Source of the DNA: a virus
Lineage: Duplodnaviria; Heunggongvirae; Uroviricota; Caudoviricetes
Reading direction: 5' to 3' (one strand)
DNA length: 64,000 nt
Virus record (IMG/VR): IMGVR_UViG_3300037471_001511
Location: 1 to 64,000 of that record
Below the pieces are notes generated by a model. It was not told where the DNA came from. It saw nothing but the letters and a program-made list of their open reading frames with translations, and did not search any database. Shown one piece after another: positions 1-42,982 of this stretch; within the stretch, counting starts at the first letter, position 1, and each line of letters starts with the position of its first letter. The position numbers and the translations under genes were made by a program.

Positions 1-1320
1 GACGTCCCGGCCAAGCAGATCAAGCTGAAGATCATCGACCTGATCGGCGAGATGGCGAGCATCGAGCAGCGCATGAAGCTGTATCTGACGCCGTACCTGT
101 TCCTCACCGATCCCGAGACCGGACGGCTGTACCCGCACGTCAGCGCCATGCTGAACACGCGGCGCCTGGCGGCGGAGAGCCCGAACTCCGGCCAGATGAG
201 CAAGCGCGGCGAGTCGACCTACGTCCGCGGCTTCGTCGAGGGCGACACCCAGGACCACGTCGTGGTCAGCGTGGACTGGTCTTCGGTCGAGCTGGTGATC
301 ATCGGCGAGCTGTCGGACGACCCGCTGTTCCACGACGCGTTCGGACAGCGTCCGTACAAGGACCTGCACGCCGGCGCCGCGACCTCGGTGCTGCAGGTCG
401 AGATGCCGTGGCTGACCGAGGACCAGTTCAAGTCCCTGAAGTCGCTGCGCAAGCTCGAGGACTTCTACGACAGCTACGGCGTCCAGCCGACGGACGCCGA
501 GCGCCTGTTCACTAATCTCAAGGGCGAGCCGATCGAGGACTGCCCGGGCGCGTACAAGCTGTGGCGGACCGAGATCGGCAAGGGCGCCAACTTCAACTAC
601 TGGTTCTCGGGCTTCCTGCACACGATCGGCCAGAAGATGGGCTGGGGCCTGAACGTCACCGGCGCGGCCACCGACAACTACCGCAACCGGTTCTGGAAGG
701 CGGAAGAGTGGCGGCTCGACACCATCGACCACGCCCGGTCCTTCGGCTGGGTGGAGCTGCCCGACGGGCACCGCCGGCACAAGTACGAGGCGACCTGGCA
801 GTGGGTGGACGAGTTCAAGGCCAAATTCCCCCGCGACGAGCTGCTGGATCCCATCGTCCACGAGATCTGCCGGCGCATCCAGAAGCGGGCGCTGAACCAG
901 TGCGTCAACGCCGTGGTGCAGGGCACCTGCGCCACGCTGATGAAGCGCTCGACGCTGCGGATGCGCTCGCTGCTGCGGGAGCGGGGCTGGACCAAGGGCG
1001 ACATCGCCCGCTTCCTGATCCCGATCCACGACGAGAAGGTCTACAGCGTCCACCACGAGCTGGCGCCGTCGTTCATCACCACCCTGCGCGACGTGATGAT
1101 CGACCACCCGGACCTGTTCCGGAACCTGGTGCTCGACGCCAGCCCGGCCGTGGGCCTGACGTTCGAGCCGTGGCACCCGACCAAGGCCCCGTTCGGGCAG
1201 GTCGAGCTGGCCGAGCCGCCCGCCGAGATCGTGGGCGCCGCCCGCGCCGGCAAGCCGCTCGACGAGGAAGGTTACCGGGAGGTGATCCAGTACCTGCGGC
1301 ACACTAGGATGGCGGCATGA
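1..1320 (+). CDS. DNA polymerase I-like (family A) polymerase domain, C-terminal part; 5' end is upstream of the window
   Basis: DWSSVELVIIGELS (motif A-like, cf. DYSQIELR), KDLHAGAA, PIHDEKV (motif C-like, cf. QVHDE); strong GC3 bias in this frame; stop at 1318-1320. Confidence 0.8.
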   Translation, partial: DVPAKQIKLKIIDLIGEMASIEQRMKLYLTPYLFLTDPETGRLYPHVSAMLNTRRLAAESPNSGQMSKRGESTYVRGFVEGDTQDHVVVSVDWSSVELVIIGELSDDPLFHDAFGQRPYKDLHAGAATSVLQVEMPWLTEDQFKSLKSLRKLEDFYDSYGVQPTDAERLFTNLKGEPIEDCPGAYKLWRTEIGKGANFNYWFSGFLHTIGQKMGWGLNVTGAATDNYRNRFWKAEEWRLDTIDHARSFGWVELPDGHRRHKYEATWQWVDEFKAKFPRDELLDPIVHEICRRIQKRALNQCVNAVVQGTCATLMKRSTLRMRSLLRERGWTKGDIARFLIPIHDEKVYSVHHELAPSFITTLRDVMIDHPDLFRNLVLDASPAVGLTFEPWHPTKAPFGQVELAEPPAEIVGAARAGKPLDEEGYREVIQYLRHTRMAA

Positions 1321-1565
1321 AAAAGATTCTTCTGAACCTCATCGGCGGCCTCGGCAGCTTGTCGCTGGCTGGTGCCGTCCTGCTGCTCGCGATGCACGGC
1401 GAGTGGCGCTGGGCGATCGGCCTCTCCCCTGTCGTGATCGGTTTGGGCACGTTCGGGATGCGCTACGGGTTCGGCGGGAGCGCCCGTTCGGCGCTCACCC
1501 CGGCGCTGATCGTCACCGCCGCCTGTGCGGTGTGGGTGATCTTGGTATGGGGCAAGCTGCCGTAA
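1317..1565 (+). CDS. small hydrophobic membrane protein (82 aa)
   Basis: ATGA overlap with preceding stop; two predicted TM stretches (LLNLIGGLGSLSLAGAVLLLA, ALIVTAACAVWVILVW). Confidence 0.45.
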   Translation: MKKILLNLIGGLGSLSLAGAVLLLAMHGEWRWAIGLSPVVIGLGTFGMRYGFGGSARSALTPALIVTAACAVWVILVWGKLP

Positions 1566-1569
1566 TCTA

Positions 1570-1582
1570 GTTCCAGTGGAAC
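1570..1582. promoter_or_regulatory. GTTCCAGTGGAAC palindrome (member of recurrent motif family)
   Basis: perfect GTTCCA-N-TGGAAC in the 60-bp gap upstream of the resolvase/MTase/exonuclease operon. Confidence 0.5.
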
Positions 1583-1625
1583 CGAGCAGTCTTTTCACCC
1601 AAGACTGATAGCGTTCGGTATCCCG

Positions 1626-2063
1626 GTGTTCATGGTCAAGAACACCGGCAAGCCTTCGGAAGAGATTTTCGACAGCCACTGGCCGCTGCGCTACGGCAAG
1701 CGCGCTTGGGTGTTCAAGTTCACCGACTCCGCCGAGGCCACCGGCCAGAACAAGCGGATCACCAAGGTCAAGGCCCAGCCCAGCGACCGCGTCGTGGTCT
1801 GCAACGGGCGCACCATGTTCGCCGAGGTGAAGTCGACGTGGGACGCGTTCCGCTTCGACTTCAGCCTGCTGCGCCGGACGCAGAGCGCCATGGCCCGGAT
1901 GATCATGGTCGCCGGGGGCGAGTATTACGTGTACGTCCACGCGCTGGCCTTGGACCGATGGTTCTGTGTTCCCTACCGGACCATCCTGCAGACCAAGGAC
2001 GTGGGCCGCGCCTCACTCCGCTGGGAAGAGCTGCGCGGGCTCGAGTGGGACTGCGCGGCATGA
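1626..2063 (+). CDS. PD-(D/E)xK nuclease, Hjc-like Holliday junction resolvase (putative)
   Basis: PSDRVVVCNGRTMFAEVKST matches the D..(I/V)(I/V)A..NG....(I/A)E(V)K(S)(T) core of archaeal-type Hjc resolvases; 4-bp ATGA overlap with the downstream MTase. Confidence 0.5.
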   Translation: MFMVKNTGKPSEEIFDSHWPLRYGKRAWVFKFTDSAEATGQNKRITKVKAQPSDRVVVCNGRTMFAEVKSTWDAFRFDFSLLRRTQSAMARMIMVAGGEYYVYVHALALDRWFCVPYRTILQTKDVGRASLRWEELRGLEWDCAA

Positions 2064-3346
2064 GGTTCGCGACGGTCTGCTCAGGGGTTGAGGCCGTCAG
2101 CCTCGCGTGGGAGCCGCTGGGCTTCACGCCGGTGTTCTTCAGCGAGAACGCCAAGGCGCCGAGCAAGGTGCTCAAGCACCACTGGCCGCACGTCCCGAAC
2201 CTCGGCGACATGACCCAGATCGACGGCCGGGCGTGGCGCGGCCAGGTCGACGTGCTGTGGGGCTCGACGCCCTGCCAGAGCTTCAGCCTCGCCGGCCGGC
2301 GGGCCGGTCTGGCCGACCCGCGGGGCGGTCTGACCCTGAAGTTCGTGGACCTCGCCGACGAGATCGACCCAGCCTTCGTCTGCTGGGAGAACGTGAAGGG
2401 GGTGCTCAGTGACAAGCACAACGCTTTCGGATGCCTTCTCGCTGGTCTGGCCGGAGAAGATGTGCCGCTGGTCCCGTCAGGGACCAAATGGTCGAACGCT
2501 GGTTATGTGCTTGGACCCCAGAGAGCAGTCGCGTGGCGGCTCTTCGACGCCGAATACGCAGGCCTGGCGCAACGACGCGAGCGTGTCTTCCTTGTCAGCT
2601 GTCCTCGAGACGGGGCCGATCCCCGAGAGGTACTATTTGAGCGTGACGGCCTGCGTCGGGATCATCCGCCGAGCCGCGAAACGGGGACGGTCGTTGCCGC
2701 TCTTACTGCTCGCGGCGTTGGGGTCGGTGGTCCTGACCTCGCTCACGCCCAAGCAGGACATCTGCTCCCTGTTGTCGCTGTCCGCGGCGAAATAACCCAC
2801 CCCCTGCGCGGCGAAAGCCACGACGGCGGCGAGGACGGTCTCGGCAAGGGTACGCCGATCGTGGCGTTCTCCTGCAAGGACGACGGCGGCGACGCGGCCG
2901 GCGACGTGGCTCCGACGCTCAGGGCCATGACCCACGAGGGGTCGCACGCCAACGCAGGCGGTCAGCTGGCGGTCGCCTACGCCGTCGCCAGCCGTGGCCG
3001 GGACGACGGCGCCACCCTCGAGCTGGGCGGCGAGGTCGCCAACAGCCTGCGGGCGGCGGACGGCGGCGGCTCCCGTGAGCTGGTGCTGATCGCCGAGGCG
3101 CCCCTGTTCCAGAAGGTTCCGGTCACGCCACAGACGTTGGTGACGGCCGCACGGCTGGTCAGGGCGCGCGTTCGGCGGCTCACGCCGCTCGAGTGCGAAC
3201 GCCTGATGGGCTTTCCCGACAATCACACGCTGGTGCCGGGGATGGCCGACGCCCCCCGCTACAAGATGTGCGGCAACAGCGTGGCCGTTCCCGACGTCCG
3301 GTTCATCGGACAGGGCATCAAGAAGGTGGGGCTATGCAAGACGTAA
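2060..3346 (+). CDS. DNA (cytosine-5)-methyltransferase, orphan
   Basis: motif I VCSGVEA, motif IV GSTPCQSFSLAG, motif VI WENVKGVLS, C-terminal GNSVAVP (motif X); variable target-recognition region in the middle; start ATG 2060 in frame with track ORF 1706..3346. Confidence 0.9.
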   Translation: MRFATVCSGVEAVSLAWEPLGFTPVFFSENAKAPSKVLKHHWPHVPNLGDMTQIDGRAWRGQVDVLWGSTPCQSFSLAGRRAGLADPRGGLTLKFVDLADEIDPAFVCWENVKGVLSDKHNAFGCLLAGLAGEDVPLVPSGTKWSNAGYVLGPQRAVAWRLFDAEYAGLAQRRERVFLVSCPRDGADPREVLFERDGLRRDHPPSRETGTVVAALTARGVGVGGPDLAHAQAGHLLPVVAVRGEITHPLRGESHDGGEDGLGKGTPIVAFSCKDDGGDAAGDVAPTLRAMTHEGSHANAGGQLAVAYAVASRGRDDGATLELGGEVANSLRAADGGGSRELVLIAEAPLFQKVPVTPQTLVTAARLVRARVRRLTPLECERLMGFPDNHTLVPGMADAPRYKMCGNSVAVPDVRFIGQGIKKVGLCKT

Positions 3347-3894
3347 TGGTGGACATCGAGACCACGGGCACCGACCCGTGCCACACCTCGATCATCCAGC
3401 TCTCAGCGGTAAAGTTCGACTACGAGACCAGCCAGATCGGCGACTCGTTCGACATGTGCCTGTTCCCGCTGCCCGAGCGGTTCTGGGACGAGGACACCCG
3501 CGCGTTCTGGAACAAGAACAGCGAGGTGCTCGAGAGCATCCTGCACCGTGCCCAGGATCCGGCCGCGGTGATCCACGCCTTCGTGCAGTGGGTCCGCGAC
3601 GGCGGCAACGGCCAGCCGATGCGGCTCTGGGCCAAGCCGGCCACGTTCGAGCAGCCGTTCCTGGCCAGCTACTTCCGCCGCTTCGGCCTCGACAACCCGT
3701 TCCACTACCGCTTCACCATCGACCTGAACTCCTTCGTCCGCGGCATGCAGGGCGACCCCGGCGCCGAGCCGCTGGAGAAGAAGATCCCGTTCCAAGGCAA
3801 CATGCACGACGCGCTGGACGACGTGCTCCACCAAGTGAAGGTCGCGCTGATGGCCCGACACATGGTCGGGGGCGGCGCCGATGCGACTGCCTGA
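3334..3894 (+). CDS. DEDDh-type 3'-5' exonuclease (DnaQ-like)
   Basis: Exo I VDIETTG, Exo III HDALDD; ATG 3334 overlaps the MTase stop. Confidence 0.75.
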   Translation: MQDVMVDIETTGTDPCHTSIIQLSAVKFDYETSQIGDSFDMCLFPLPERFWDEDTRAFWNKNSEVLESILHRAQDPAAVIHAFVQWVRDGGNGQPMRLWAKPATFEQPFLASYFRRFGLDNPFHYRFTIDLNSFVRGMQGDPGAEPLEKKIPFQGNMHDALDDVLHQVKVALMARHMVGGGADATA

Positions 3895-4339
3895 CTGGCT
3901 GAAGGAGCGTCTGTTCAGTAGCGCGTTCGACGCGACCTGGCGCGACCCCGACCTGCTGATCGGGCCGGAGAACAACCCCTACCTGCGGCGCTGGTGGCTG
4001 GTCCCACGCAACCCGTTCCTGAACGTCTACCTGCACAACATCCGCAGGTCGGACGACGCGACCCGCGGCCTGCACGATCATCCATGGTGGTCGGTCAGCG
4101 TGCTGCTGAAAGGCAGCTACTACGAGATCGTGCCGCTGAACCCGCGCAACCCGAGGGGGCGGACGCAGCGCCTGTTCTGGCGATCAGGCTCGGTGATCTT
4201 CCGCGGCGCCAAGCACGCCCACCGGCTTGAGGTCACGCTTCCCAAGGCGAACGTCTGGACCCTGTTCATCACCGGTCCCCGCTTCCGCCAGTGGGGCTTC
4301 TGGGAACCCGAAGGATGGAGGGCGCACGATGCTCTATGA
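3881..4339 (+). CDS. hypothetical protein, possible cupin-fold metalloprotein
   Basis: GLHDHPWW (HxH) and a downstream AKHAHRLEV histidine, reminiscent of cupin metal-binding motifs; weak. Confidence 0.4.
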   Translation: MRLPDWLKERLFSSAFDATWRDPDLLIGPENNPYLRRWWLVPRNPFLNVYLHNIRRSDDATRGLHDHPWWSVSVLLKGSYYEIVPLNPRNPRGRTQRLFWRSGSVIFRGAKHAHRLEVTLPKANVWTLFITGPRFRQWGFWEPEGWRAHDAL

Positions 4340-4538
4340 CCTGAGCGCGTACCGTGAGGCTCGCGTCGAACCGCCTCCGGCCCCTCTGCCGGCCGAGGAC
4401 GAGGTGCTCTGCACCGTCACGATCACTTCCGAAGGGGTGCAGGTGTGGGTGTCCGACCAGGTCGCCACCCTGCCCCAGCGCGCCTGGCTGGCGCGCCGGA
4501 TCAATCAAGCGAAGGACATGCTGACATGGCGCGACTGA
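4329..4538 (+). CDS. hypothetical protein (69 aa)
   Basis: ATG 4329 in frame with track ORF 4227..4538; overlaps upstream stop. Confidence 0.35.
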   Translation: MLYDLSAYREARVEPPPAPLPAEDEVLCTVTITSEGVQVWVSDQVATLPQRAWLARRINQAKDMLTWRD

Positions 4539-5485
4539 AGCTCACCGGCGACGTCCATCTGGGCAAGAAGTTCCAGCAGAACGTCCCGCTTCACCGGCGC
4601 GGTGACCGCGAAAAGATGCAGTGGGAGCAGCTCGAGCGCGAGCTGATGGACTGCGACGGGGCCGACGCCCACATCCAGATGGGCGACATCTTCGACGGCT
4701 TCGTCGTCTCGTTCGCCGTGATCATGCGGCTGGTCGAGCTGTACAAGCGAGCCCGGGCCAAGAACCCGAACGTCCGCTTTGGCGTGCTCAGGGGCAACCA
4801 CGACGCGGACCGGGACCTGGACCGCGTGTCGGCGTTCGACGTGCTGGCCGAGCTGCTGGCCGCGATCGGCGTGGTGGTGGCCAAGGACGAGCCAGTGGAG
4901 ATCCTGCCCGGGCACTGGATGATCCCGTGGCACCCGATCATCTCGGCCCAGGCGATGGTCAACCACTACGCCGACCGGCTGGCCGGCGCCGCGGCGGTGT
5001 TCGGTCACTGGGACGTGGTCATGGGCGAGGAGAACCGCTGCCCGGCCCAGGCGCTGGCCCAGCTGGGCGTCGGCGCGATCTACACCGGCCACGACCACCT
5101 GCCGCGGATCGAGCGCGTGGACGGGGTCGACGTGTTCGTGGTGGGCTCGATGCAGCCCTACAGCCACGCCGAGGATCCGGGCGAGATCATCTACGTGACC
5201 CGCACCTTGGCCGAGGTCCGCGCCGACCCGAACGGCTTCGCCATGAAGGCGCTGCGCGTGGTGCTGGATCCGGGCGAGACCTTCGACCTGCAGATCGACT
5301 GCCTGCAGCTGCAGGTCACCCGCGGCAAGGTCGAGGCGGAGGAAGTCGACTTGGGCGAAGTCCAGTTCGAGGCCTTCGATCTGAACGAGCTGTTCGCGGC
5401 CGCCTGCCGGCAGATCGGGCTCGACGCCGAGACCCAGGCGCTCACCAGCCGGCGTCTGGAGGAAGAACGTGCGGCCCGCGCTTAG
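4526..5485 (+). CDS. sbcD: SbcD/Mre11-like metallophosphoesterase nuclease
   Basis: GDVHLG, GDIFDG, LRGNHD, GHWD, TGHDH calcineurin-like motifs; immediately followed by an SbcC-like ATPase. Confidence 0.8.
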   Translation: MARLKLTGDVHLGKKFQQNVPLHRRGDREKMQWEQLERELMDCDGADAHIQMGDIFDGFVVSFAVIMRLVELYKRARAKNPNVRFGVLRGNHDADRDLDRVSAFDVLAELLAAIGVVVAKDEPVEILPGHWMIPWHPIISAQAMVNHYADRLAGAAAVFGHWDVVMGEENRCPAQALAQLGVGAIYTGHDHLPRIERVDGVDVFVVGSMQPYSHAEDPGEIIYVTRTLAEVRADPNGFAMKALRVVLDPGETFDLQIDCLQLQVTRGKVEAEEVDLGEVQFEAFDLNELFAAACRQIGLDAETQALTSRRLEEERAARA

Positions 5486-5678
5486 CGACGCCCACGTCGC
5501 CGTGCTGACGGCCTGCCTCGAGCTGCCGCTCGCCCCGGGCGAAATGGCCCTGCTTCGATCCATCGTTCACCACGCCGGCATGGGAACCCTGCACGACTGG
5601 GGCATGGCCAACTTCATGCGCCAGGACGAGGTGAACGCCCTCTTCAACCGCTGTCAGGAGTTGCTCCGTGTTCCATAA
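5469..5678 (+). CDS. hypothetical protein (69 aa)
   Basis: short ORF bridging sbcD and sbcC, overlapping both. Confidence 0.35.
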   Translation: MRPALSDAHVAVLTACLELPLAPGEMALLRSIVHHAGMGTLHDWGMANFMRQDEVNALFNRCQELLRVP

Positions 5679-7749
5679 GCTGGACTACTCGGTCACCTTC
5701 GACAAAGGACCGAACGGCCCCCGCACGCTGCGGGCGTCGCTGAACTTCACCACCGGGTTCACCGTGATCAGCGGCCCGAACGAGGCCGGCAAGAGCTTCG
5801 TCTTCGAGATGATGCGCTTCGCCCTGTTCGGGACGCAGGCGCTGCGGGGCGCCGCTGAGGACTACAAGAGCCTGCGCATGTCGGCCGAGGTCGACATCCG
5901 CGGCGAGCGCTACCGGATCGACCGCAACATCGACAAGGCCACGCTGTACCGGGGCGGCCAGGTCGTCTGCAACGGCGTGCGCGCGGTCAACGACAAGATC
6001 GTCCGCATCCTGGGCTTCGGCCTGCAGGTGTTCGACGTGGCCTGCTCGGTGAACCAGGGCGAGGTCGAGCGCCTCGGCGCCATGGCGCCGGCGGAGCGCA
6101 AGAAGATGGTCGACGGCGTGGTCGGGATCGACACGCTGGACGTGGTGGCCAAGTGGTTCGTCGACGAGGCCAAGGTGTTCGACCGGGAGGCGGAGGCGAT
6201 CCGGTCCCGGCTCGTGGTCCCGGTCCGTCCGGCCGTGCCTGACGGCTATCGGTCCAGCGCCGAGATCCCGCTCGAGACCGCCCGCGCCCAGGCTCGCGAG
6301 CTGGCCGAGCTGACCGGCTGGTTGGCGCACGCCCGGCCCAAGCCGGCCGAGCCGACCTGCAAGGTCGATCTGCCGGCGGTGAACCTGACGGTGTTCGCCA
6401 ACAAGCGCCGCAAGCTGCGCGAAGAGATCGCCGACCTCGAAGCCGTGCCGCACGCGGTGGCGTTCTACACCGACGCGCAGCTCGACGAGGCGGAGACCGA
6501 CTGGCAGGCGTACGTCGAGTACGAGAACGCCCAAGCCTGGCTGCGCAACAACCCGGCGCCGCGGGCGACCGGCGAGCTGCAGCTCGACGTGTTCGAGGAC
6601 GACTGGACGGCGATCCACAACGTCGAGACGCGCGCCTCGCTCTGCCAGCGGATCAAGGCGCTGCAGGAGAAGGGCTTCAAGCTGTGCCCGCACTGCGGCG
6701 GCGAGATCCCGCTCGAGGAAGACGCCATCGAGCAGCTGGTCCAGCAGCACGACGCCCTGCCCGTGCCGGACAGCGGCCGGGCGCCGCCCACGCCGCCGCT
6801 CACCCCGGCCGAGATCGCGGTCGAGCGCCAGCGGCTGAAGACCTGGGACGCCGCGAAGGCCGAGCAGATGCGGGCCGTCGCGGAGATTCCCCGGCCGGGG
6901 ATTCCGAAGGAGGACATCCCGGTCCACCGCACGGTGATCAAGCAGGCCCAAGCTTGGAAGGACGCGCAGGGTCTGCTTGCGGCGACGCGGCATCAGTTCG
7001 CCGAGATGCCCGACTACGAGACCATGCTGATCGAGCGGCAGGCCTACGAGGAAGCCCTGCCCCGCTACCGGCAGGAGCTGGCCGACTGGGAGGCGTGGAA
7101 CACCGAGCGGCAGAAGAAGGAGCTGCGGCGCACCCAGCTGGCCGGCGCCGAGGCGACGCTCGCCGCGCTCGAGGCCGAGCACCGGACCGCCGTGGCGTTC
7201 GAGCAGCAGCTCGCCGTCTACGAGGCCGCCCGGCAGGCCTATGAGACCGGGGAGCGGGACGCCAACGACCTGACGGCCAAGGCCGAGCGCTACCGGAAGG
7301 TCCGCGACGTGATGGCGGTGCTGCGCTCGCTGATCAAGCAGCACCTGCTGCCCAGCCTGAACACGGTGGCCAGCGCGCTGCTGGCCGTCATGACCGGCGG
7401 CCAGCGCCGGTCGATCTACGTGGACGAGGAGTTCGACGTGCTGGTCGACGGCCAGCGCCTGAACACCCTGTCCGGCTCCGGCAAGGCCTGCGCCAACCTC
7501 GCGCTGCGCATCGCGCTCGGCCAGGTGCTGACCAACCGGGTGGTCTCGGTGCTGCTCGCCGACGAGATCGACGGCAGCATGGACGACTTCCGGGCCGAGA
7601 AAACGTCACAGATCCTATGGAACCTTACAAATAGCATCTCCCAGGTGCTGCTGGTCTCCCATAAGCAAATCGAAGGCGAACATCACGTTCGTATCGGAGG
7701 CTTAAGTGGGGACGGAGAACCAGCAGATCTCCTTGGATCGGCTGCGTGA
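5668..7749 (+). CDS. sbcC: SbcC/Rad50-like SMC ATPase
   Basis: Walker A GPNEAGKS near N-terminus, CPHCGG zinc hook in a coiled-coil middle, C-terminal LLADEIDGSMDD (Walker B/D-loop). Confidence 0.85.
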   Translation: MFHKLDYSVTFDKGPNGPRTLRASLNFTTGFTVISGPNEAGKSFVFEMMRFALFGTQALRGAAEDYKSLRMSAEVDIRGERYRIDRNIDKATLYRGGQVVCNGVRAVNDKIVRILGFGLQVFDVACSVNQGEVERLGAMAPAERKKMVDGVVGIDTLDVVAKWFVDEAKVFDREAEAIRSRLVVPVRPAVPDGYRSSAEIPLETARAQARELAELTGWLAHARPKPAEPTCKVDLPAVNLTVFANKRRKLREEIADLEAVPHAVAFYTDAQLDEAETDWQAYVEYENAQAWLRNNPAPRATGELQLDVFEDDWTAIHNVETRASLCQRIKALQEKGFKLCPHCGGEIPLEEDAIEQLVQQHDALPVPDSGRAPPTPPLTPAEIAVERQRLKTWDAAKAEQMRAVAEIPRPGIPKEDIPVHRTVIKQAQAWKDAQGLLAATRHQFAEMPDYETMLIERQAYEEALPRYRQELADWEAWNTERQKKELRRTQLAGAEATLAALEAEHRTAVAFEQQLAVYEAARQAYETGERDANDLTAKAERYRKVRDVMAVLRSLIKQHLLPSLNTVASALLAVMTGGQRRSIYVDEEFDVLVDGQRLNTLSGSGKACANLALRIALGQVLTNRVVSVLLADEIDGSMDDFRAEKTSQILWNLTNSISQVLLVSHKQIEGEHHVRIGGLSGDGEPADLLGSAA

Positions 7750-8104
7750 GATCTACGAAAAACACGGCGGCAATCTCAATCTGATCGCTGCTGAACTCGG
7801 GATTTCACAAGGGGACATTCAAGAGAAGTTCACGACGCCGCCGACGCCGCCGGCGCGGGGACGCACCCCGCCGGCGGACCTGGGGTCTGAGAGCCTGCGG
7901 CAATTCATCGTCGCGTACCGCCACGCCGACTGTCCGGTGTGGAGGAAGGAAGACCAGAAGAAAATCGAAGAGGCCCGCGCCCTGTACTGCGCCGGCACGC
8001 ACGAGGTCTTCCAGGGCCGCGACCAGAACTGGTTCATCCTCTACTGCCAGCCCCGCAAGAAACGTTGCGGCGCTCGCAAGTGGTACACGGCTTTCGGGGA
8101 ATAG
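7706..8104 (+). CDS. HTH plus Cys-cluster protein (GTG start), in a lower-GC island
   Basis: N-terminal LNLIAAELGISQGDIQEK HTH-like; C-terminal C..C..C cluster; RBS GGAGG upstream; local GC about 50%. Confidence 0.45.
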   Translation: MGTENQQISLDRLREIYEKHGGNLNLIAAELGISQGDIQEKFTTPPTPPARGRTPPADLGSESLRQFIVAYRHADCPVWRKEDQKKIEEARALYCAGTHEVFQGRDQNWFILYCQPRKKRCGARKWYTAFGE

Positions 8105-8110
8105 GGGGGT

Positions 8111-8344
8111 ATGATGCGTACAGATCCGCACGGTCCGCTGAACGCGAACCAGCGCGCGCTCATGACGAAATTCACCCGCGAGACGCTCGAGGGGAAGAAA
8201 GAGCCGCAGCGCGACTACTCAAATCGCAAGCCCTACCGCAACAAGAACCAGAAGAAGGTGGCCCGCATGACGGCCGCCCGCGGTCAGGACGGCGTCTGGC
8301 GCTCCAACGCGCCCACGATGCAGCACCCCGAGGTGCGCTCATGA
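8111..8344 (+). CDS. hypothetical basic protein (77 aa)
   Basis: Lys/Arg-rich; lower-GC region. Confidence 0.35.
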   Translation: MMRTDPHGPLNANQRALMTKFTRETLEGKKEPQRDYSNRKPYRNKNQKKVARMTAARGQDGVWRSNAPTMQHPEVRS

Positions 8345-8610
8345 CCCACAATCTAGCGGACACCAGCCGCTCGGCGTTCGAACAGAACGCTGAGCGGCTG
8401 CAGGCTACGCGCGCGCGGACGCTGGCAGAGCTTCGGCGACGCCCGCAGACCGCATTCGAACTGGCCGAGAGCCTGCACGAGCCGTTCTACAACGTGCAGC
8501 CGGCCTGCTCGAAGCTGCGTTCCGACGGCCAGATCAAGGACTCCGGCGAGCGCCGGCCGTCGCCGCGCAGCGGTCTGCCCGCCATCGTGTGGAAGGCGGT
8601 GGCGCCATGA
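8341..8610 (+). CDS. hypothetical protein, possible winged-helix
   Basis: ATG 8341; TAFELAESLHEP...KLRSDGQIKDSGERR resembles MarR-like wHTH. Confidence 0.4.
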   Translation: MTHNLADTSRSAFEQNAERLQATRARTLAELRRRPQTAFELAESLHEPFYNVQPACSKLRSDGQIKDSGERRPSPRSGLPAIVWKAVAP

Positions 8611-9161
8611 TCGTCGGGCTCACCGGCCGGAAGGGCTCCGGCAAGGACACCGCCGCCCAGGTCTTCGAAGCCTGCGGCTTCACGCACCTCAAATTCGCCG
8701 ACTGCCTCAAAGGCATGCTGGCCTACCTGCTGCGCTATCAGGGCCTGCCTCAGGAGCTGGTCCTGCGCATGGTCGAGGGCGACCTGAAGGAGACGCCGTC
8801 CCCCTACCTGGCGGGACGGACGCCTCGCTACGCCATGCAGACGCTGGGCACCGAGTGGGGCCGGCAGATGATGGGCGAGGACATCTGGGTCGACGCGGTG
8901 CTGCACGCCTCGCAGGAGTTCGATCACATCGTGATCAGCGATGTGCGGTTCCCCAACGAATTCGAGGCGATCAAGGAAGAAGAGGGCAACGTCGTCTACC
9001 GGATCGACCGACCCGGGCTCGACGCCTCCGACACCCACGCCTCGGAAAGCCACGTCGACAGCTTCGACGTGGACTGCGTGCTGCTGAACGACCGGCCCAC
9101 CCCGGAAGACTTCCAGCAGCTCGTCTACGGGGTGCTCAGCCCGGCGCAAGGAACCTGCTGA
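8607..9161 (+). CDS. deoxynucleoside monophosphate kinase (phage dNMP kinase-like)
   Basis: P-loop GLTGRKGSGKDT and ISDVRFPNEFEAIKE as in T4 gp1-type dNMP kinases; ATGA overlap upstream. Confidence 0.65.
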   Translation: MIVGLTGRKGSGKDTAAQVFEACGFTHLKFADCLKGMLAYLLRYQGLPQELVLRMVEGDLKETPSPYLAGRTPRYAMQTLGTEWGRQMMGEDIWVDAVLHASQEFDHIVISDVRFPNEFEAIKEEEGNVVYRIDRPGLDASDTHASESHVDSFDVDCVLLNDRPTPEDFQQLVYGVLSPAQGTC

Positions 9162-9394
9162 TGGACCGCTACTTCATCCCGGCCGCCAAGGCGGTCGCGT
9201 ACGTGATCGGCCTCGTGGCCGCACTGATCTTTCTGTTCCGGAACGTCGTCGGCCCCCTGTTCGGCTCGACCTCCGATCTGGGCGTGCTCGGCGCCGTGGG
9301 CGCCGCGATGCTCGGCCTGATCGGCTTCGCGTGGGCGGTCCGCGCCGCCGTCCGTGACCTTCGGCGCGAATTCCAGAAAGCCAACAAACAATGA
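9161..9394 (+). CDS. small membrane protein (77 aa)
   Basis: two hydrophobic helices; ATG 9161 overlaps preceding stop. Confidence 0.45.
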   Translation: MDRYFIPAAKAVAYVIGLVAALIFLFRNVVGPLFGSTSDLGVLGAVGAAMLGLIGFAWAVRAAVRDLRREFQKANKQ

Positions 9395-10227
9395 AACGCA
9401 TCATCACGTCTGTGGCGGCCCTCGGGGCCGCCCTGTCCCTGAGCGCCTGCATCGGCCAGACCGTCGACCCCGGCAACGTCGGGGTGAAGATCAAGCGCAT
9501 CGGCTCGGGCGCCGGCGTCCAGGCCGAGCCGCTGCCGGCCCGCTGGCACGCGCTGGGCTGGGGCGAGGACATCGTCCAGTACCCGATCATCCAGCGCACC
9601 TACCCGTTCGCCCGCGAGAAGTCGGCCGACGGCTCGACGGATAACGAGGAGCTGGTGTTCTCCGACAACACCGGCCTGCCCATGACCGCCGACGTGGCCC
9701 TGACCATGCAGGTCGACCCGGCCGCGGCGCCGAAGCTGTACACCAAGTACCGGCTGACCTTCGACCAGCTGCTGCTGGGACCGATCCGCAACGACCTGCG
9801 CTCGGCCATCGCCGCCGAGACCGAGAAGGTCGGCGTGGCCGATCTGTACTCCGGCGGCCGGCAGGCGGTGATCCACCGCGCGCTGGCGACGATCCAGCCG
9901 AAGTGGGCGGCCGAGGGCGTCCACATCAGCCAGCTCGAGTGGATCGGCTCCATCCGCTACCCGGAAGCGATCCTGCAGCAGATGCAGGAGAAAACCCGGC
10001 TCGAGCAGGAAGCCATCGCCGCCAAGGCGTTGGCCGCCAAAGCCGAAGCGCTGGCCGCCGCCAAGGTCGCCGAGGCCAAGGGCGACGCCGAGTCGACCCG
10101 GATCCGCGGCGAGGCGCTGCGTTCCAACCCCCAGGTGCTGCAGCAGCAGGCCATCATGAAGTGGAACGGCGTGCTGCCGACGGTGACGAGCGGCGGCGCC
10201 GTCCCGTTCGTCAATGTCAAGCCGTGA
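9391..10227 (+). CDS. SPFH/band-7 domain lipoprotein
   Basis: lipobox LSLSAC; SPFH-like core; C-terminal Ala/Glu-rich coiled coil as in HflK/C and prohibitins. Confidence 0.55.
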   Translation: MKRIITSVAALGAALSLSACIGQTVDPGNVGVKIKRIGSGAGVQAEPLPARWHALGWGEDIVQYPIIQRTYPFAREKSADGSTDNEELVFSDNTGLPMTADVALTMQVDPAAAPKLYTKYRLTFDQLLLGPIRNDLRSAIAAETEKVGVADLYSGGRQAVIHRALATIQPKWAAEGVHISQLEWIGSIRYPEAILQQMQEKTRLEQEAIAAKALAAKAEALAAAKVAEAKGDAESTRIRGEALRSNPQVLQQQAIMKWNGVLPTVTSGGAVPFVNVKP

Positions 10228-10325
10228 GAGGTCTAGTGGATCCTCAGAGTTAATCACTCTCGGCACGGTCGGGACGACCTAGCGTCATAGGTTCTTCCCG
10301 ACCCCTCCCGCAGGAGATCTCTCCC

Positions 10326-12536
10326 GTGATTGTGCGTGAACTCGACCCTGGCATGGGCCAGGCCGTCGCCGAGCGGACTGTGCTCCGCCGCCAGCCGGAT
10401 GGCACTTTCGAGACCTGGGGCGACGTCGCCCACCGCGTCGCGGTCGGCAACTCGATGCTGACCGGAGACGTCAGCGACTACGCCCTGATGAAGCACCACT
10501 TGGGCCAAGCGACGCTGCTGATGTCTGGCCGTCACCTGCAACACGGGGACGAAACTCAGCCACAACGCAACCAAGAAGTTTATACAAATTGCTCAACTGC
10601 TGCGTGTACATTCGCCCTGTTTCTGCTGCTGCTGAACGGCTCGGGCGTCGGCCGCTGCTACGACGACGACATGATGCAGGTCGACTGGGAGTATGCGCCC
10701 GCCCTGCGTGTCGTGCTCAGCGACAGCCACCCGGACTTCGACTGGGCCAAGCACGAGAGCCTGCGCGAGGCGCGGCACAAGTACCGGGGCGCGATCTGGC
10801 ACGTGGTCGAGGACAGCCGGGAGGGCTGGGCCAAGGCCGTGGAGCTGTGGGAGACGCTGGCGTTCGAGAAGATCCACCGGGACAAGCTCCTGGTGCTGGA
10901 CTTCAGCCGGGTCCGGCCCCGAGGCGCGCCGATCGCCGGCATGCAGAACCGCCCCGCTTCCGGCCCGGCGCCGCTGATGGACGCCTTTCTGAAGGCGAAC
11001 ACGGTCCGCGGCGCCGGCCTCGAGCCGTGGCAGCAGACCATGTACATCGACCACTACTTCGCGGAGTGCGTACTGGTCGGCGGCGCCCGCCGGGCTGCGC
11101 GCATGGCCACCAAGTTCTGGCGCGACCGCAGCGTGCTCGAGTTCATCCACGTCAAACGGCCCGTCGAGTACGAGGGCCTGACCATGGACGAGATCGCGGC
11201 GCTGCCGTTCAAACCGTCGTCGTTCCTGTGGTCGTCGAACAATTCGGTGGCGGTGGACGCGGAGTTCTGGGCGCTGCTCGAGCAACCAGCCGACAGCAGC
11301 GCCGACGCCGCCCACGCCCACCGCGTCTGGAAGGCGCTGACCGAAGCCTCCTACGGCGACGGCACCGGCGAGCCCGGGATCATCAACGTCGACAAGCTCG
11401 AGCGGAACGACGAAGGCCTGATCGAGGACGGCGACTTCATCGGGTCGCGGAAGTACCAGGTGAGCCGGGAGACCCGGCGCTACCTCGCCAAGCTGGCCAA
11501 GCGCGCCAGTCAGAAGACCTACAACGTCATCGTCAACCCGTGCGGCGAGATCGTCCTGAACCTGCTCGGGGCCTACTGCGTGATCGCCGACGTGGTGCCC
11601 TACCACGCCCCGAACCTGGACGAGGCCGAGGAGGCCTTCCGGGTGGCCACCCGGGCGCTGATCCGCGTCAACCTGATGGACTGCCTGTACGGCCGCGAAA
11701 CGCGCCGCACGAACCGGATCGGCGTCGGCATGACCGGGGTCCACGAGTTCGCCTGGAAGTTCTTCTGGGTCGGCTTCCGCGACCTGATCAACCCGGACTT
11801 CGACGGCATCGACCAGCACGATCCGCGCGTGCGGGCGGCGTGCTTCTGGCGGACCATCGCCCGCTTCCGCGAGGCGGTGAAGGACGAGGCGATCACCTAT
11901 TCGCGCGAGCTGGGCGTCGCGATCCCGCACACCGCGTTCACCATCAAGCCGGCGGGCACGACTTCGAAGCTGTTCGGCCTTACCGAGGGCTGGCACCTGC
12001 CGCCGATGCGCGAGTACCTGCGCTGGGTGCAGTTCCGCGAGGACGACCCGCTGATCGCCACCTACGAGGCGGCCGGCTATCCGATCCGCAAGCTGAAGAC
12101 CTACACCGGCACGGTGATCGTCGGCTTCCCGACGCAGCCGGCGATCTGCCGGCTCGGCATGGGCGAGGCGCTGGTCACGGCCGGCGAGGCCACGCCGGAA
12201 GAGCAGTACCGGTGGCTGCAGCTCGGCGAGCGGTTCTGGATCGGCGACGACGGCATGGGCAACCAGATCAGCTACACGCTGAAGTACGATCCCAAGGTCG
12301 TGGGCTTCGACCAGTTCGAGTCCATGATGCGTGCCTACCAGCCGACCATCCGCTGCTGCTCGGTCATGCCCCAGGTCGACATGGCGGCCTACGAGTACCA
12401 GCCGGAAGAGCGGATCTCGGAACTCGAGTACGCCCGTCTGGTGCAGCAGATCGAGCGCAAGGCCGAGGACGTCGACCGGGAGCACGTCGACTGTTCCACC
12501 GGCGCTTGCCCGATTGACTTCCGCAAGACCGCCTGA
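10326..12536 (+). CDS. nrdJ: ribonucleotide reductase class II (adenosylcobalamin-dependent)
   Basis: catalytic NPCGEIVL motif, C-terminal CSTGACPIDF redox cysteines; 736 aa. Confidence 0.9.
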   Translation: MIVRELDPGMGQAVAERTVLRRQPDGTFETWGDVAHRVAVGNSMLTGDVSDYALMKHHLGQATLLMSGRHLQHGDETQPQRNQEVYTNCSTAACTFALFLLLLNGSGVGRCYDDDMMQVDWEYAPALRVVLSDSHPDFDWAKHESLREARHKYRGAIWHVVEDSREGWAKAVELWETLAFEKIHRDKLLVLDFSRVRPRGAPIAGMQNRPASGPAPLMDAFLKANTVRGAGLEPWQQTMYIDHYFAECVLVGGARRAARMATKFWRDRSVLEFIHVKRPVEYEGLTMDEIAALPFKPSSFLWSSNNSVAVDAEFWALLEQPADSSADAAHAHRVWKALTEASYGDGTGEPGIINVDKLERNDEGLIEDGDFIGSRKYQVSRETRRYLAKLAKRASQKTYNVIVNPCGEIVLNLLGAYCVIADVVPYHAPNLDEAEEAFRVATRALIRVNLMDCLYGRETRRTNRIGVGMTGVHEFAWKFFWVGFRDLINPDFDGIDQHDPRVRAACFWRTIARFREAVKDEAITYSRELGVAIPHTAFTIKPAGTTSKLFGLTEGWHLPPMREYLRWVQFREDDPLIATYEAAGYPIRKLKTYTGTVIVGFPTQPAICRLGMGEALVTAGEATPEEQYRWLQLGERFWIGDDGMGNQISYTLKYDPKVVGFDQFESMMRAYQPTIRCCSVMPQVDMAAYEYQPEERISELEYARLVQQIERKAEDVDREHVDCSTGACPIDFRKTA

Positions 12537-12751: not shown

Positions 12752-13054
12752 ATGGATCCGACTACGCTCCCGCCACGCCTGACGCGCTCGGAAGTCCTTG
12801 CTCTGGCGAGGATCAGCGACAACACGCTGCGCAAGCACATCCGCGCCGGTCGGTTCCCTGCGCCAATCGACCGCGGGAAAGAGCAACTCTTCGCGCGCGA
12901 CCAGGTACTCAAAGTGATACAATCACGCCAGCAAGTACCTGATGTACCTGCGCTTTCGGAGACAGAGTATGACCACCAGAGGCAAGAAGCGATCCGCCTC
13001 GAATTCGAAAGGATCGCCCGCCGAAGTCGAGCGAAGGTTTCTCGATCAACTTGA
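12752..13054 (+). CDS. xis: excisionase/AlpA-like HTH protein
   Basis: SEVLALARISDNTLRKHIRAGRFPAPI resembles AlpA/phage excisionase HTH; 3' end overlaps int, so the true extent is uncertain. Confidence 0.45.
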   Translation: MDPTTLPPRLTRSEVLALARISDNTLRKHIRAGRFPAPIDRGKEQLFARDQVLKVIQSRQQVPDVPALSETEYDHQRQEAIRLEFERIARRSRAKVSRST

Positions 13055-14222
13055 ACTCGGCCAGTACGTCGAGGCGCGGAAGCGTGCAAACGGCACGTAT
13101 GCGGTGCGGTTCAAACTGTCACCTGCCATGACGCCAAAGGACTGGCCCTCGGTCTGGCCGCTTCCCCGCACCGGCAATTGGCCTGGCAACCTACTCGACC
13201 CTCAAGAAGTCCAAGCCATCCGTGACGACGCCGCTGCGCTCCGCGTGGAAGTCCAGATGGCTCGGGCGACGCAGAAGGTCGATGAGAACCAGGCCCTGCA
13301 GCCTCGGACGTGGGAAACCCTACGTGACCGGTGGGAGGCCGATCCGGAATTTAAGCGTCTCGACGACACGACCAAGCACGGCTATCGCGCCAATGTCAGG
13401 CGGGCCATCAGGCTGGCCACCGAGGATAACGTTCGACCCTCGACCGCATCAGAACTGGAAATCACAACAGCTCTGAACCGGGTGACGCACCCAGTCACCC
13501 GTACGGCGACCCTTCACGCCTTCCGTGTGATGCTCCGTGACGCCAAACGGCTCGGTTGGCGCAAGGACAACCCTACCGAGGACATCAAGATCAAGGGCCG
13601 AGCCAAAGCATCGCAGCAATCCCGCGTCGGAATTTGGGAAGCCGACGACGTGGCGTTTTATGCCCGCAAGGCGGAGGAAGCCGGCCTAGTTTCACTGGCT
13701 GGCATCATTCAGACCGAGTGGGAGATCGGCCAACGCCTGACCGATGTGCGCCTGTTCCGCTACGCCAAGGACAAGAAGGATCGCGAGGGACAATACCTTC
13801 GCTCCGACGGCGTGTTCCGCTTCTGGCAGAACAAGACACAGCAGTGGGTGACCATCCCAGTTTCAGATCGTTTGATGGGCCTCCTGAACCGGCCCGGCGG
13901 AAGCCTGCTGTTCCCGCACCCCACCACTGGCGAAGCCTACACCAGTGACCAACTGACGAAGGAGTTTAACGGGCTCCGGAAGCTGGTCGGCCGGAACCGT
14001 CGCTTCCTCGAAATGAAGCACCTGCGCCACTCCTGCGTCGTTCAGTTGGCGACCGCTGAACCGGTCCCATGCGAGATCCTCGAGATCGCGGCGATCACGG
14101 GGCACACAGTCGCGTCTGTGAATACGATCATTCAGCGCTACTGCCCGAGGGACAATCGCCTGGCTTGGGCGGCGCAGCGGAAACGCGGACTGGTCCGTTC
14201 GGAGCCTGCGGTCGCCCAATAA
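12969..14222 (+). CDS. int: tyrosine integrase
   Basis: C-terminal HLRHSCVV..., ITGHT and terminal Y (RHRY catalytic pattern); N-terminal arm-binding-like region; start could be 12942 or 12969. Confidence 0.85.
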   Translation: MTTRGKKRSASNSKGSPAEVERRFLDQLELGQYVEARKRANGTYAVRFKLSPAMTPKDWPSVWPLPRTGNWPGNLLDPQEVQAIRDDAAALRVEVQMARATQKVDENQALQPRTWETLRDRWEADPEFKRLDDTTKHGYRANVRRAIRLATEDNVRPSTASELEITTALNRVTHPVTRTATLHAFRVMLRDAKRLGWRKDNPTEDIKIKGRAKASQQSRVGIWEADDVAFYARKAEEAGLVSLAGIIQTEWEIGQRLTDVRLFRYAKDKKDREGQYLRSDGVFRFWQNKTQQWVTIPVSDRLMGLLNRPGGSLLFPHPTTGEAYTSDQLTKEFNGLRKLVGRNRRFLEMKHLRHSCVVQLATAEPVPCEILEIAAITGHTVASVNTIIQRYCPRDNRLAWAAQRKRGLVRSEPAVAQ

Positions 14223-14323
14223 TGGCGTTGTCCCCAAATTGCGGTTCTGTGCGGCCCCATGAGGCTCTGTGCGGTTTCTTGTCCCCAAACATCAATAAAA
14301 TCAATAGCTTACCTCTGATTTCG

Positions 14324-14373
14324 GTGGATTCATAACCCACAGGTCGCGAGTTCGATCCTCGCCCCAGCTACCA
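14324..14373 (+). other. 3' portion of a tRNA-Met(CAT)-like gene (anticodon arm, T arm, acceptor 3' strand, CCA) with no 5' half; putative attP core
   Basis: GTGGA-TTCATAA-CCCAC anticodon arm, GCGAG-TTCGATC-CTCGC T arm, CCCAGCT-A-CCA; upstream sequence cannot form D arm or acceptor 5' strand; lies 100 bp downstream of int. Confidence 0.6.
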
Positions 14374-14400
14374 AATTTCCCCTTCTAAATCAGAGAGTTA

Positions 14401-14431
14401 GGCCCCCGGAAACGGGGGCCTCTTTTTGTTT
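14401..14431 (+). terminator. rho-independent terminator downstream of int
   Basis: GGCCCCCGG-aaa-CGGGGGCC followed by TCTTTTTGTTT. Confidence 0.65.
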
Positions 14432-14599
14432 GGGGACATTTTGGGGACATGACACTGTCCCCAACGTTTTCACACGTTCTCGAGAATCACTGGTCAATGA
14501 AATGTGGCGGGGCGGCGGGGCGCGTAACTCCCCTGTTAACGTGTCCGCCGCCCCGCCTCGTGGCTCTCCGTCCCCAGGTCGAGGGAGCCACGAACTTGT

Positions 14600-14672
14600 T
14601 GGACGCGGTCGGGATCGAACCGACGGCCGAGGACTTTAAGTTCCCCTGCTCTCACCACTGAGCTACGCGCCC
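14600..14672 (-). tRNA. tRNA-like gene (73 nt, no encoded CCA) with canonical acceptor, D and T arms but ambiguous anticodon loop
   Basis: reverse complement GGGCGCG-TA-GCTC-AGTGGTGA-GAGC-A-GGGGA-ACTTAAA-GTCCT-CGGCC-GTCGG-TTCGATC-CCGAC-CGCGTCC-A; the anticodon stem has a mismatch in either register, giving UUA or UAA. Confidence 0.65.
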
Positions 14673-42327: not shown

Positions 42328-42982
42328 CCCAGTCTCTTAAGCAGAAGGGCCTCGAGTTGGTCCGCCGTCTTGGGTGCGCTGGAAGGATCGGCGCCCTTCT
42401 TCCCGCCACCGAGAGCCCTCGCCACGACGATGCTTAGGGTCTCGTAGAACTGAGCAACATCAGCCGTCTTTTCTTCACACCGCAGATTGATCTTGGCCTT
42501 CAGATCTTCGTACGAGCACCGACCATAAAGATCGCGGAGTTCGCTCGGGACTACGCCGAACGCCCAGCAGCAAGATCTTTCGAAATTAAGTCGCGTAAGC
42601 CAGGAAGTGACGACTGAAGGGCCGCCGTGATCGGTTCCAGATTTGCGGCCTGCTTTGCTGACATCTGGAACTGCCTCGCGAAAAAACTCATCAGGTGCCC
42701 TTGCACCCACATGAGGATCTTCTCGATTTCATCGGCGGTGAGTTCGTCTTCGGCCAGCGGGTAGTCGAGACCTCCGGCCGGGCCGGCCTTGCTGTCGAGC
42801 ATGACCTTCAGGATCATCTCGCTGAGGTCCGGGTCGTAGACCAGGAACGGAAGGCGGTCCGGCTCGCCCAGCATCCGCAGACACTGGTTCAGGCGCAGGA
42901 ACGACATGAACAGTTCGCGCGGCCCGTCTCGGTGCGTGATCTCAAGTCGGGCCGGCGGGATGGGGATTTCAGCGGCTTCCAA
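42324..42982 (-). CDS. tail assembly chaperone G-T fusion produced by programmed -1 frameshift
   Basis: the -1 frame of the gpG-like gene continues as track ORF 42324..42710 (EFFREAVPDVSK...) from the slippery heptamer. Confidence 0.6.
42551..42982 (-). CDS. tail assembly chaperone (lambda gpG-like)
   Basis: position upstream of tape measure; contains slippery site. Confidence 0.65.
   Translation of the reverse strand: MEAAEIPIPPARLEITHRDGPRELFMSFLRLNQCLRMLGEPDRLPFLVYDPDLSEMILKVMLDSKAGPAGGLDYPLAEDELTADEIEKILMWVQGHLMSFFARQFQMSAKQAANLEPITAALQSSLPGLRDLISKDLAAGRSA
42680..42686 (-). other. slippery heptamer T TTT TTC for -1 ribosomal frameshift
   Basis: minus-strand ATG AGT TTT TTC GCG; X XXY YYZ pattern. 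Confidence 0.6.

Follow-up and report, generated by a model that had tools for sequence, protein, structure and literature searches.

The window analysed in this work, a stretch of 64,000 nucleotides (positions 1 to 64,000 of the IMG/VR virus record IMGVR_UViG_3300037471_001511, Caudoviricetes), carries a siphovirus genome collinear with that of the Caulobacter phage Seuss, with identities of 63% for the large terminase, 62% for the capsid and 54% for the portal protein. The host expected of such a Seuss-like phage would be a GC-rich, Caulobacter-type bacterium. Replication genes occupy the plus strand (1-12536) and late genes the minus strand (14684-56606), and the convergent junction between them holds a 2-kb insert (~12.6-14.7 kb), slightly below the rest of the window in GC content, that comprises a tyrosine integrase gene, an attP-like site and a transfer RNA (tRNA) gene at 14600-14672. 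This tRNA is the subject of the present analysis. It combines the acceptor-stem identity elements of tRNA-Ala with an anticodon arm that folds best with an eight-nucleotide loop containing UAA, and is tentatively interpreted below as an alanine-inserting reader of leucine codons.

The tRNA gene and its anticodon arm

A phage-encoded tRNA-like gene had been proposed at this locus in a reading of the nucleotides alone (below, the sequence-only reading), which left the strand unstated; the gene lies on the minus strand and specifies the RNA GGGCGCG-UA-GCUC-AGUGGUGA-GAGC-A-GGGGA-ACUUAAAG-UCCUC-GGCC-GUCGG-UUCGAUC-CCGAC-CGCGUCC-A. It is a genuine tRNA gene. ARAGORN identifies it as the sole tRNA of the window and labels it tRNA-Leu with anticodon UAA, the tRNA model of Rfam (RF00005) matches it end to end with 53.6 bits (gathering threshold 29, E-value 1e-8), and RNAfold folds the whole molecule into a cloverleaf of -30.3 kcal/mol. 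The canonical acceptor, D and T arms described in the sequence-only reading are present, with all stems fully paired (7 bp with one G-U, 4 bp and 5 bp, respectively), and the invariant positions U8, A14, G18G19, G53-U54-U55-C56, A58 and C61 are intact, so that both the stem lengths and the conserved loop nucleotides are those of a tRNA cloverleaf. The CCA end is not encoded, and a search of the flanks for partial copies of the gene returned chance-level matches only.

The anticodon arm departs from this regularity, as the sequence-only reading had also noticed: the RNA lacks a 5-bp stem closing a seven-nucleotide loop with U33 and a purine at position 37, and each seven-nucleotide register requires a mismatch. 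Two such registers had been proposed, and both are indeed used by annotation programs. In register A, chosen by Infernal, the loop ACUUAAA presents the anticodon UUA after C33 at the cost of an A31xG39 mismatch (posterior 0.7-0.8); the lowest posteriors of the alignment fall across the anticodon arm, and the 31-39 pair is marked as non-standard. In register B, chosen by ARAGORN, the loop CUUAAAG presents the anticodon UAA, with an AxC mismatch, a two-base connector and a four-nucleotide variable loop. The tRNA is found both by ARAGORN and by covariance scoring, and no covariance model gives it a well-paired anticodon arm with a seven-nucleotide loop, in keeping with the proposal that this is not a standard elongator.

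A third register, missed in the sequence-only reading, is the minimum-energy structure of the whole tRNA in RNAfold. Here, the pairs G27-C44, G28.U43, G29-C42, G30-C41 and A31-U40 close the eight-nucleotide loop ACUUAAAG, followed by a four-nucleotide variable loop. When the anticodon hairpin is folded in isolation, this register reaches -5.5 kcal/mol, compared with -1.0 kcal/mol for the Infernal register and +1.9 kcal/mol for that of ARAGORN, so in these folding models both earlier registers are inferior to it. The loop holds UAA (35-37) after U34 and before A38, and also UUA (34-36) after C33. For annotation, the lesson is that ARAGORN and Infernal assign different anticodons and that the best fold is given by neither program.

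Relatives of the loop and identity of the acceptor

Scans for sequence patterns in viral, metagenome and genome collections detected a loop of the form A[C/G]UUAAA[A/G] in six further distinct and unrelated tRNAs from phage or metagenome sequences (L012, L038a, L038b, L046, L056 and L081), a count that is uninformative on frequency because the patterns demanded the loop sequence. The anticodon stems of these relatives are diverse (GCCGG/CCGGG, GCGGA/UCCGA, GCGGG/CCCGU, CAGGA/UCCUG, GGGGA/UCUCU and CCGGA/UCCGG), and over the six and the window tRNA together the eight-nucleotide model accounts for 33 of 35 stem pairs, against 19 and 21 of 35 for the seven-nucleotide registers. The closing pair varies between A-U and G-C, the inner pairs also compensate, and in six of the seven tRNAs the minimum-energy fold has the eight-nucleotide loop. 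Since the stems of the relatives compensate, the eight-nucleotide architecture is not a one-off defect.

The base added in each of the seven loops is an A on the 5' side, ahead of [C/G]UUAAAR. Among class-I tRNA-like sequences with a CUUAAA core, ~30 distinct ones fold with a seven-nucleotide CUUAAAR loop (U33, anticodon UAA, A37), and the NCUUAAA fold (anticodon UUA, C33) is found in only two, L037 and L010, with the loops ACUUAAA / CCUUAAA; the stem of L037 is 5/5 paired, and that of L010 is longer with one AxC mismatch. The position of the extra A and the prevalence of CUUAAAR loops make the anticodon UAA (codons UUA/UUG) with one additional 5' nucleotide the simplest reading of the expanded loop.

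Several of the relatives have a setting of their own. The two C33-UUA-AA loops lie on viral contigs (L010 4536-4713 and L037 4713-4788), the former 17 nucleotides from a tRNA with the amber-type anticodon CUA. L038a and L038b are adjacent within a phage-like tRNA cluster (L038 839-1047; also L039, L047 and L049), have the loops ACUUAAAG and AGUUAAAA and are encoded on the strand opposite to the GC-rich tRNA cluster, which contains no other Leu tRNA in the available sequence. One 87-kb contig of a Thermoanaerobaculia metagenome-assembled genome (MAG) carries two identical tRNAs with eight-nucleotide loops (L056 and L077; GGGGA-ACUUAAAA-UCUCU, four-nucleotide variable loop), which could be duplicates at att sites or a repeated gene. 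Comparison of the gene context of the relatives revealed no common neighbourhood. BLAST searches for near and distant relatives among 50,697 phage records yielded no relative of the region and only generic tRNA similarity (to tRNA-Lys and tRNA-Arg for the window tRNA, to tRNA-Asn for L013 and to tRNA-Phe for L046), exact-pattern scans of IMG/VR for the whole window tRNA or its 3' end found none, and neither did an integrase-based search for related viral loci.

The single G-U pair of the acceptor stem is G3:U70, which with A73 is the universal mark of alanine identity, a feature overlooked in the sequence-only reading. With G1:C72, G2:C71 and A73 it forms the alanine identity set, of which G3:U70, A73 and G2:C71 define the identity for alanyl-tRNA synthetase (AlaRS). 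In a background set assembled from the distinct tRNAs of every locus retrieved, from which those selected by their acceptor had been excluded, G3:U70 is present in 6 of 7 Ala tRNAs and in 1 of 160 others, the latter a doubtful parse; it also occurs in 3 of the 30 tRNAs with UAA-type loops in this set, one of which (L021) parses ambiguously. When viral contigs were scanned for the identical acceptor, the only matches were two tRNAs of one 424-kb jumbo-phage contig, a true tRNA-Ala(GGC) and a true tRNA-Ala(UGC). Four viral tRNAs (L011, L013, L088 and L089) combine G3:U70 and A73 with an unambiguous UAA in a seven-nucleotide CUUAAAA loop, the anticodon stem being fully paired in L089 and having one mismatch in each of the other three. 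The two kinds of tRNA coexist in L013, where this tRNA adjoins a different, short tRNA-Leu(UAG) of Leu-like type. Recognition by AlaRS depends on G3:U70 and not on the anticodon (PMC10543346), and natural G3:U70 allo-tRNAs with non-Ala anticodons insert alanine in E. coli (PMC5389517); on these grounds, alanylation of the window tRNA is a reasonable expectation.

The insert, stop codons and codon usage of the phage

The features of the insert, together with the parts of the tRNA, are listed in Table 1. Homologues of the integrase number 374, many of them with PF00589, and relatives with ~40% identity adjoin tRNA-Lys or tRNA-Arg genes in Caulobacteraceae genomes. The arm-type repeats TTGGGGACA of the attP-like site are located at 14229-38, 14280-89, 14429-38, 14440-49 and 14456-64, with no other exact copies in the window, and the tRNA fragment that they surround gives a weak match to the tRNA model at 14305-14362. 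The expected attB of the host would be a CAU tRNA ending in ...GGTCGCGAGTTCGATCCTCGCCCCAGCTACCA.

Table 1. Coordinates of the tRNA gene, its parts and other features of the window
Feature	Position	Strand	Basis or remark
tRNA gene, complete, 73 nt, 7/5 cloverleaf	14600-14672	minus	ARAGORN, Rfam tRNA, RNAfold
Acceptor stem, 5' strand GGGCGCG (RNA 1-7), G3 at 14670	14666-14672	minus	7/7 pairing with 14601-14607
Acceptor stem, 3' strand CGCGUCC, and discriminator A73 (14600), U70 at 14603	14600-14607	minus	sequence
Anticodon stem, 5' strand GGGGA (RNA 27-31)	14642-14646	minus	RNAfold minimum-energy fold, pair counts
Anticodon loop, 8 nt, ACUUAAAG (RNA 32-39)	14634-14641	minus	RNAfold minimum-energy fold, compensating stems of relatives
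Anticodon stem, 3' strand UCCUC (RNA 40-44)	14629-14633	minus	RNAfold minimum-energy fold, pair counts
Variable loop, 4 nt, GGCC	14625-14628	minus	3' of anticodon stem
Tyrosine integrase gene, TAA stop	12942-14222	plus	phrog_1 integrase, E 1.5e-11
attP-like site	14229-14464	plus	five exact TTGGGGACA arm-type repeats around the 3' fragment of a CAU tRNA
3' fragment of CAU-anticodon tRNA, ~45 bp, anticodon loop to CCA (ends CCCAGCT-A-CCA)	~14324-14373	plus	
Terminator after the attP tRNA fragment	14400-14421		terminator scan
GC-rich perfect 13-bp inverted repeat, GGCGGGGCGGCGG ... CCGCCGCCCCGCC, then ACAUUUCAUU	14506-14557	minus	between tRNA and attP arm sites
Hairpin 3' of the tRNA	14558-14593	minus	inverted repeat
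Slippery heptamer T_TTT_TTC, tail assembly chaperone G/GT	42686-42680, within 42327-42982	minus	classical -1 slip

The tRNA begins 11 nucleotides past the last small open reading frame (ORF) of the late region, on the same strand, and is followed by two hairpins, an arrangement that suggests co-transcription with the late genes. The hairpins at 14506-14593 are likely to mark the end of the late transcript that would carry the tRNA, with the 13-bp inverted repeat probably serving as the minus-strand terminator of the late operon. The tRNA has also been considered as the attP core and as a complementing tRNA in tRNA-dependent lysogeny. Since it lies outside the arm sites and has a different anticodon, it is neither: a complete attP is present at 14229-14464, and its core has the length needed to restore the host tRNA, which is of another isotype. 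The window tRNA is cargo beside the integration module.

The 64 genes supported by GC content at third codon positions end in TGA (41), TAG (13) or TAA (10). The TAA codons that terminate the capsid, portal and two tail genes fall at the very residues at which the Seuss homologues end, and beyond the TAA codons the read-through and +1 frames are short, or the next gene follows with its own start codon and ribosome-binding site (RBS). Of the approximately three TTA codons in credible genes, two belong to the G gene of the tail assembly chaperone, downstream of the slippery heptamer. The -1 frame of this gene is the T extension, which runs to the start codon of the tape-measure gene, and this dual coding explains the odd TTA codons in G; the regions around the three codons are not conserved in homologue alignments. 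Neither stop-codon recoding nor a +1 site nor any demand for UUA is seen in the phage, and with so little UUA, TAA as a true stop and an ordinary -1 slip, the tRNA does not serve the phage's own genes as a recoding suppressor. Recoding of TAA was accordingly rejected, the coding signal past TAA not exceeding chance, as was a role of the tRNA in driving the tail-chaperone frameshift, which relies on a standard -1 slip upstream of the TTA codons in the dual-coding overlap.

Possible functions of the tRNA

Tentatively, we favour the possibility that the gene encodes an Ala-charged tRNA that reads UUA and UUG, that is, a natural Leu-to-Ala missense tRNA. The tRNA would probably be transcribed with the late operon, at its 3' end, and fold with the 5-bp anticodon stem closing the expanded loop A-C-U-U-A-A-A-G on a normal 7/5 body. 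Host AlaRS would charge it with alanine through G3:U70, G2:C71 and A73, as expected of an enzyme that ignores the anticodon. The loop may be viewed as the canonical C32-U33-UAA-A37-R38 with an extra 5' A, in which case UAA would be presented and UUA (and UUG) read as triplets. UUA is almost absent from the GC-rich phage, and the tRNA is therefore not needed for phage translation; its targets would be mainly those rare transcripts with UUA/UUG that an infected or lysogenic cell makes. Where the host is GC-rich, UUA codons should be most frequent in AT-rich genes gained by horizontal transfer, among them defence systems and competing mobile elements. A broader and doubtful conjecture is that phages repeatedly evolve 'code-bending' tRNAs, the window tRNA being one of them, which join an Ala acceptor to a UAA anticodon and would mistranslate UUA/UUG as alanine, or read UAA or UUAA, and so selectively corrupt the proteins of such acquired genes while sparing the phage.

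Among the closest known systems, the allo-tRNAs described from Acidobacteria and further bacteria (Mukai et al. 2017, PMC5389517) likewise show a natural mismatch between anticodon and identity, some having Leu (UAA and others) or UAA-stop anticodons and some G3:U70, and an allo-tRNA(UAA) missense-decodes UUA. They differ, however, in their 8/4 or 9/3 acceptor/T-stem geometry, their long variable arm and, in most cases, the acceptance of serine, whereas the window tRNA is a phage-borne class-I molecule with 7/5 geometry and an eight-nucleotide loop and falls outside the allo-tRNA geometry. The mitochondrial tRNA-Ala(UAG) of Ashbya gossypii similarly places G3:U70 on an anticodon of the Leu box and reassigns Leu codons to alanine, and the yeast mitochondrial tRNA-Thr(UAG) decodes triplets with an eight-nucleotide anticodon loop (PMC7609411). 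These, in contrast, are organellar tRNAs involved in a complete reassignment of CUN codons, and the window tRNA would be an accessory gene directed at UUR codons, in a phage whose genes give no indication of reassignment.

A number of observations weigh against this interpretation. Seuss, the closest phage, has no tRNA, and its convergent junction contains only a bidirectional terminator; no sigma-70-like promoter has been detected for the tRNA. The exact gene is known from one sequence, and the searches found no close phage relative. The relatives were gathered with the ascertainment bias noted above and look polyphyletic, with Phe-, Asn- and Ala-like bodies. In the UAA register, the window tRNA has an atypical G38 instead of A38. 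Four of the relatives with eight-nucleotide loops carry A3:U70 in the same GGA...UCC-A frame and G3:C70 also occurs, so that G3:U70 could have arisen here from A3:U70 through a single transition, by drift in a GC-rich genome. Finally, TTA occurs 7 times in ~19,000 codons, only ~3 of these in credible genes, and the benefit to the phage is not obvious.

Some of the same facts would fit a non-functional relic, a hitchhiker that arrived with the integrase-attP cassette and whose anticodon arm drifted out of use. This explanation, which we consider unlikely but the most serious rival, accords with the placement of the gene in a 2-kb insertion of lower GC content, absent from Seuss, at a convergent junction, with the lack of a codon need, of an encoded CCA and of a promoter match, and with the non-canonical loop, the anticodon arm reducing the Rfam score. 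Random decay would not, however, be expected to spare 16 of 16 other stem pairs and all invariant tertiary positions, the supposed defect is a perfectly paired stem, and the loop sequence is found again in six independent tRNAs, of which some lie within phage tRNA clusters.

The possibility of an ochre suppressor, raised in the sequence-only reading, is more doubtful. With U34-U35-A36 as anticodon (register A), C33 and A37-A38, the tRNA would insert alanine at UAA. Register A is the optimal alignment of Infernal, the tRNAs L037 and L010 display C33-UUA in seven-nucleotide loops, the latter next to a CUA tRNA, and A36-A37-A38 suits tRNAs that read codons starting with U (substrates of MiaA). 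Natural G3:U70 allo-tRNAs with a UUA anticodon have also been reported (PMC5389517). On the other hand, register A costs the window tRNA a mismatch and 4.5 kcal/mol, and the four other G3:U70 tRNAs described above have the anticodon UAA and not UUA. Nor does the genome lend the idea support: 10 of the 64 genes, capsid and portal among them, use TAA as a working terminator, with ends as in Seuss, and the frames that follow are unremarkable, without special in-frame extensions, the downstream in-frame genes having their own starts and RBS. Suppressor tRNAs of stop-recoded phages (bioRxiv 10.1101/2021.08.26.457843; PMC9523058) are comparable in being phage-encoded, changing the meaning of a codon and often being expressed late, but in those phages the late genes carry TAG or TGA codons in frame throughout, whereas in the window phage TAA serves as a stop and does not occur in frame.

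Slightly less likely again is a Leu-accepting, short-armed decoder of UUA, a kind frequent on phages and mobile elements, in which the loop would perhaps confer resistance to host anticodon nucleases; evasion of these nucleases through loop changes has been proposed for phage tRNAs (PMC10264068). The sequence-only reading held that a short variable arm is incompatible with a UAA anticodon in tRNA-Leu. This objection is weak, given the ~30 class-I-sized UAA tRNAs of phage and MAG contigs and the existence of arrays with only short tRNA-Leu. In two viral contigs (L014 and L028) and an Acidithiobacillus chromosome (L072), all tRNA-Leu isoacceptors have class-I length (75-77 nucleotides) with A15/U48 and A73, and the tRNA-Ser and tRNA-Tyr of the same arrays retain long variable arms. 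The window tRNA has in common with these short tRNA-Leu the anticodon UAA, a short variable loop, the phage or mobile-element setting and A73, the main determinant of leucyl-tRNA synthetase, and clusters of the L038 type show no Leu tRNA besides the two with eight-nucleotide loops. Compared with class II bacterial tRNA-Leu, only A73 is shared, the long variable arm and the Leu D arm being absent. The D arm of the window tRNA (UAGCUCAG..GAGC) has G15 and C48, unlike the short tRNA-Leu of the arrays (A15 and U48), which also differ in their seven-nucleotide loop and lack of G3:U70; G3:U70 should divert the window tRNA to AlaRS, and UUA is hardly used by the phage.

That the tRNA is a +1 frameshift or quadruplet (UUAA) decoder serving a programmed frameshift seems very improbable. 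The tRNA shares an expanded eight-nucleotide loop with the sufD/sufJ-type frameshift suppressors (PMC5009743), its own loop has a central self-complementary UUAA, and ARAGORN labels a neighbouring member of the family '(ttaa)'; those suppressors, however, are laboratory mutants selected on frameshift alleles, and no gene that needs a +1 shift at the cognate codon was found in the window phage. The sole frameshift signal found is the classical -1 slip, with the T frame as the -1 frame, the +1 frames after TAA or UUA are short or non-coding, and frameshifting is not known for natural tRNAs whose loops are of unusual size (PMC5009743). A part in the integration apparatus, as attP core or as complementing tRNA of the tRNA-dependent lysogeny described in PMC10865867, is largely refuted: only 378 bp separate the gene from the stop codon of the integrase and relatives of the integrase integrate beside tRNA genes, but the separate attP has arm repeats on both sides and its own terminator and would rebuild the host tRNA, and the window tRNA is of a different isotype outside the arm sites.

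If the interpretation as an Ala-charged decoder of UUA/UUG is true, the gene would represent a phage-borne natural mistranslating tRNA of canonical shape. To our knowledge, natural mistranslating tRNAs have so far been found mainly among bacterial allo-tRNAs, as Streptomyces tRNA-ProX and in organelles. It would also offer a natural eight-nucleotide loop in a bacterial system whose mode of decoding (triplet, stop or quadruplet) is directly measurable. The recurrence in unrelated viral contigs, of G3:U70 with UAA in five lineages and of eight-nucleotide A[C/G]UUAAA[A/G] loops in seven, suggests a class of tRNAs that pipelines now label 'tRNA-Leu', 'tRNA-Stop' or 'tRNA-???' and then ignore. No description of phage tRNAs with G3:U70 and a UAA anticodon, or with this eight-nucleotide loop, was found in the searchable literature; a review mentions loops of non-standard size, without an explanation for them, in 'tRNAs in a phage' (PMC5009743).

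Two further kinds of unusual tRNA have been encountered in the collected loci. Bacterial MAG contigs (L057, L059, L060, L074, L075, L086 and L087) encode tRNA-Phe-like bodies (GCC...GGC-A-CCA, GUGUC variable loop) with the anticodon UAA in place of GAA, possibly readers of Leu codons with Phe identity. In addition, the cluster that contains the eight-nucleotide-loop tRNA of L046 (1929-2079; also L052) includes a tRNA-Cys with anticodon ACA beside a normal tRNA-Cys(GCA).
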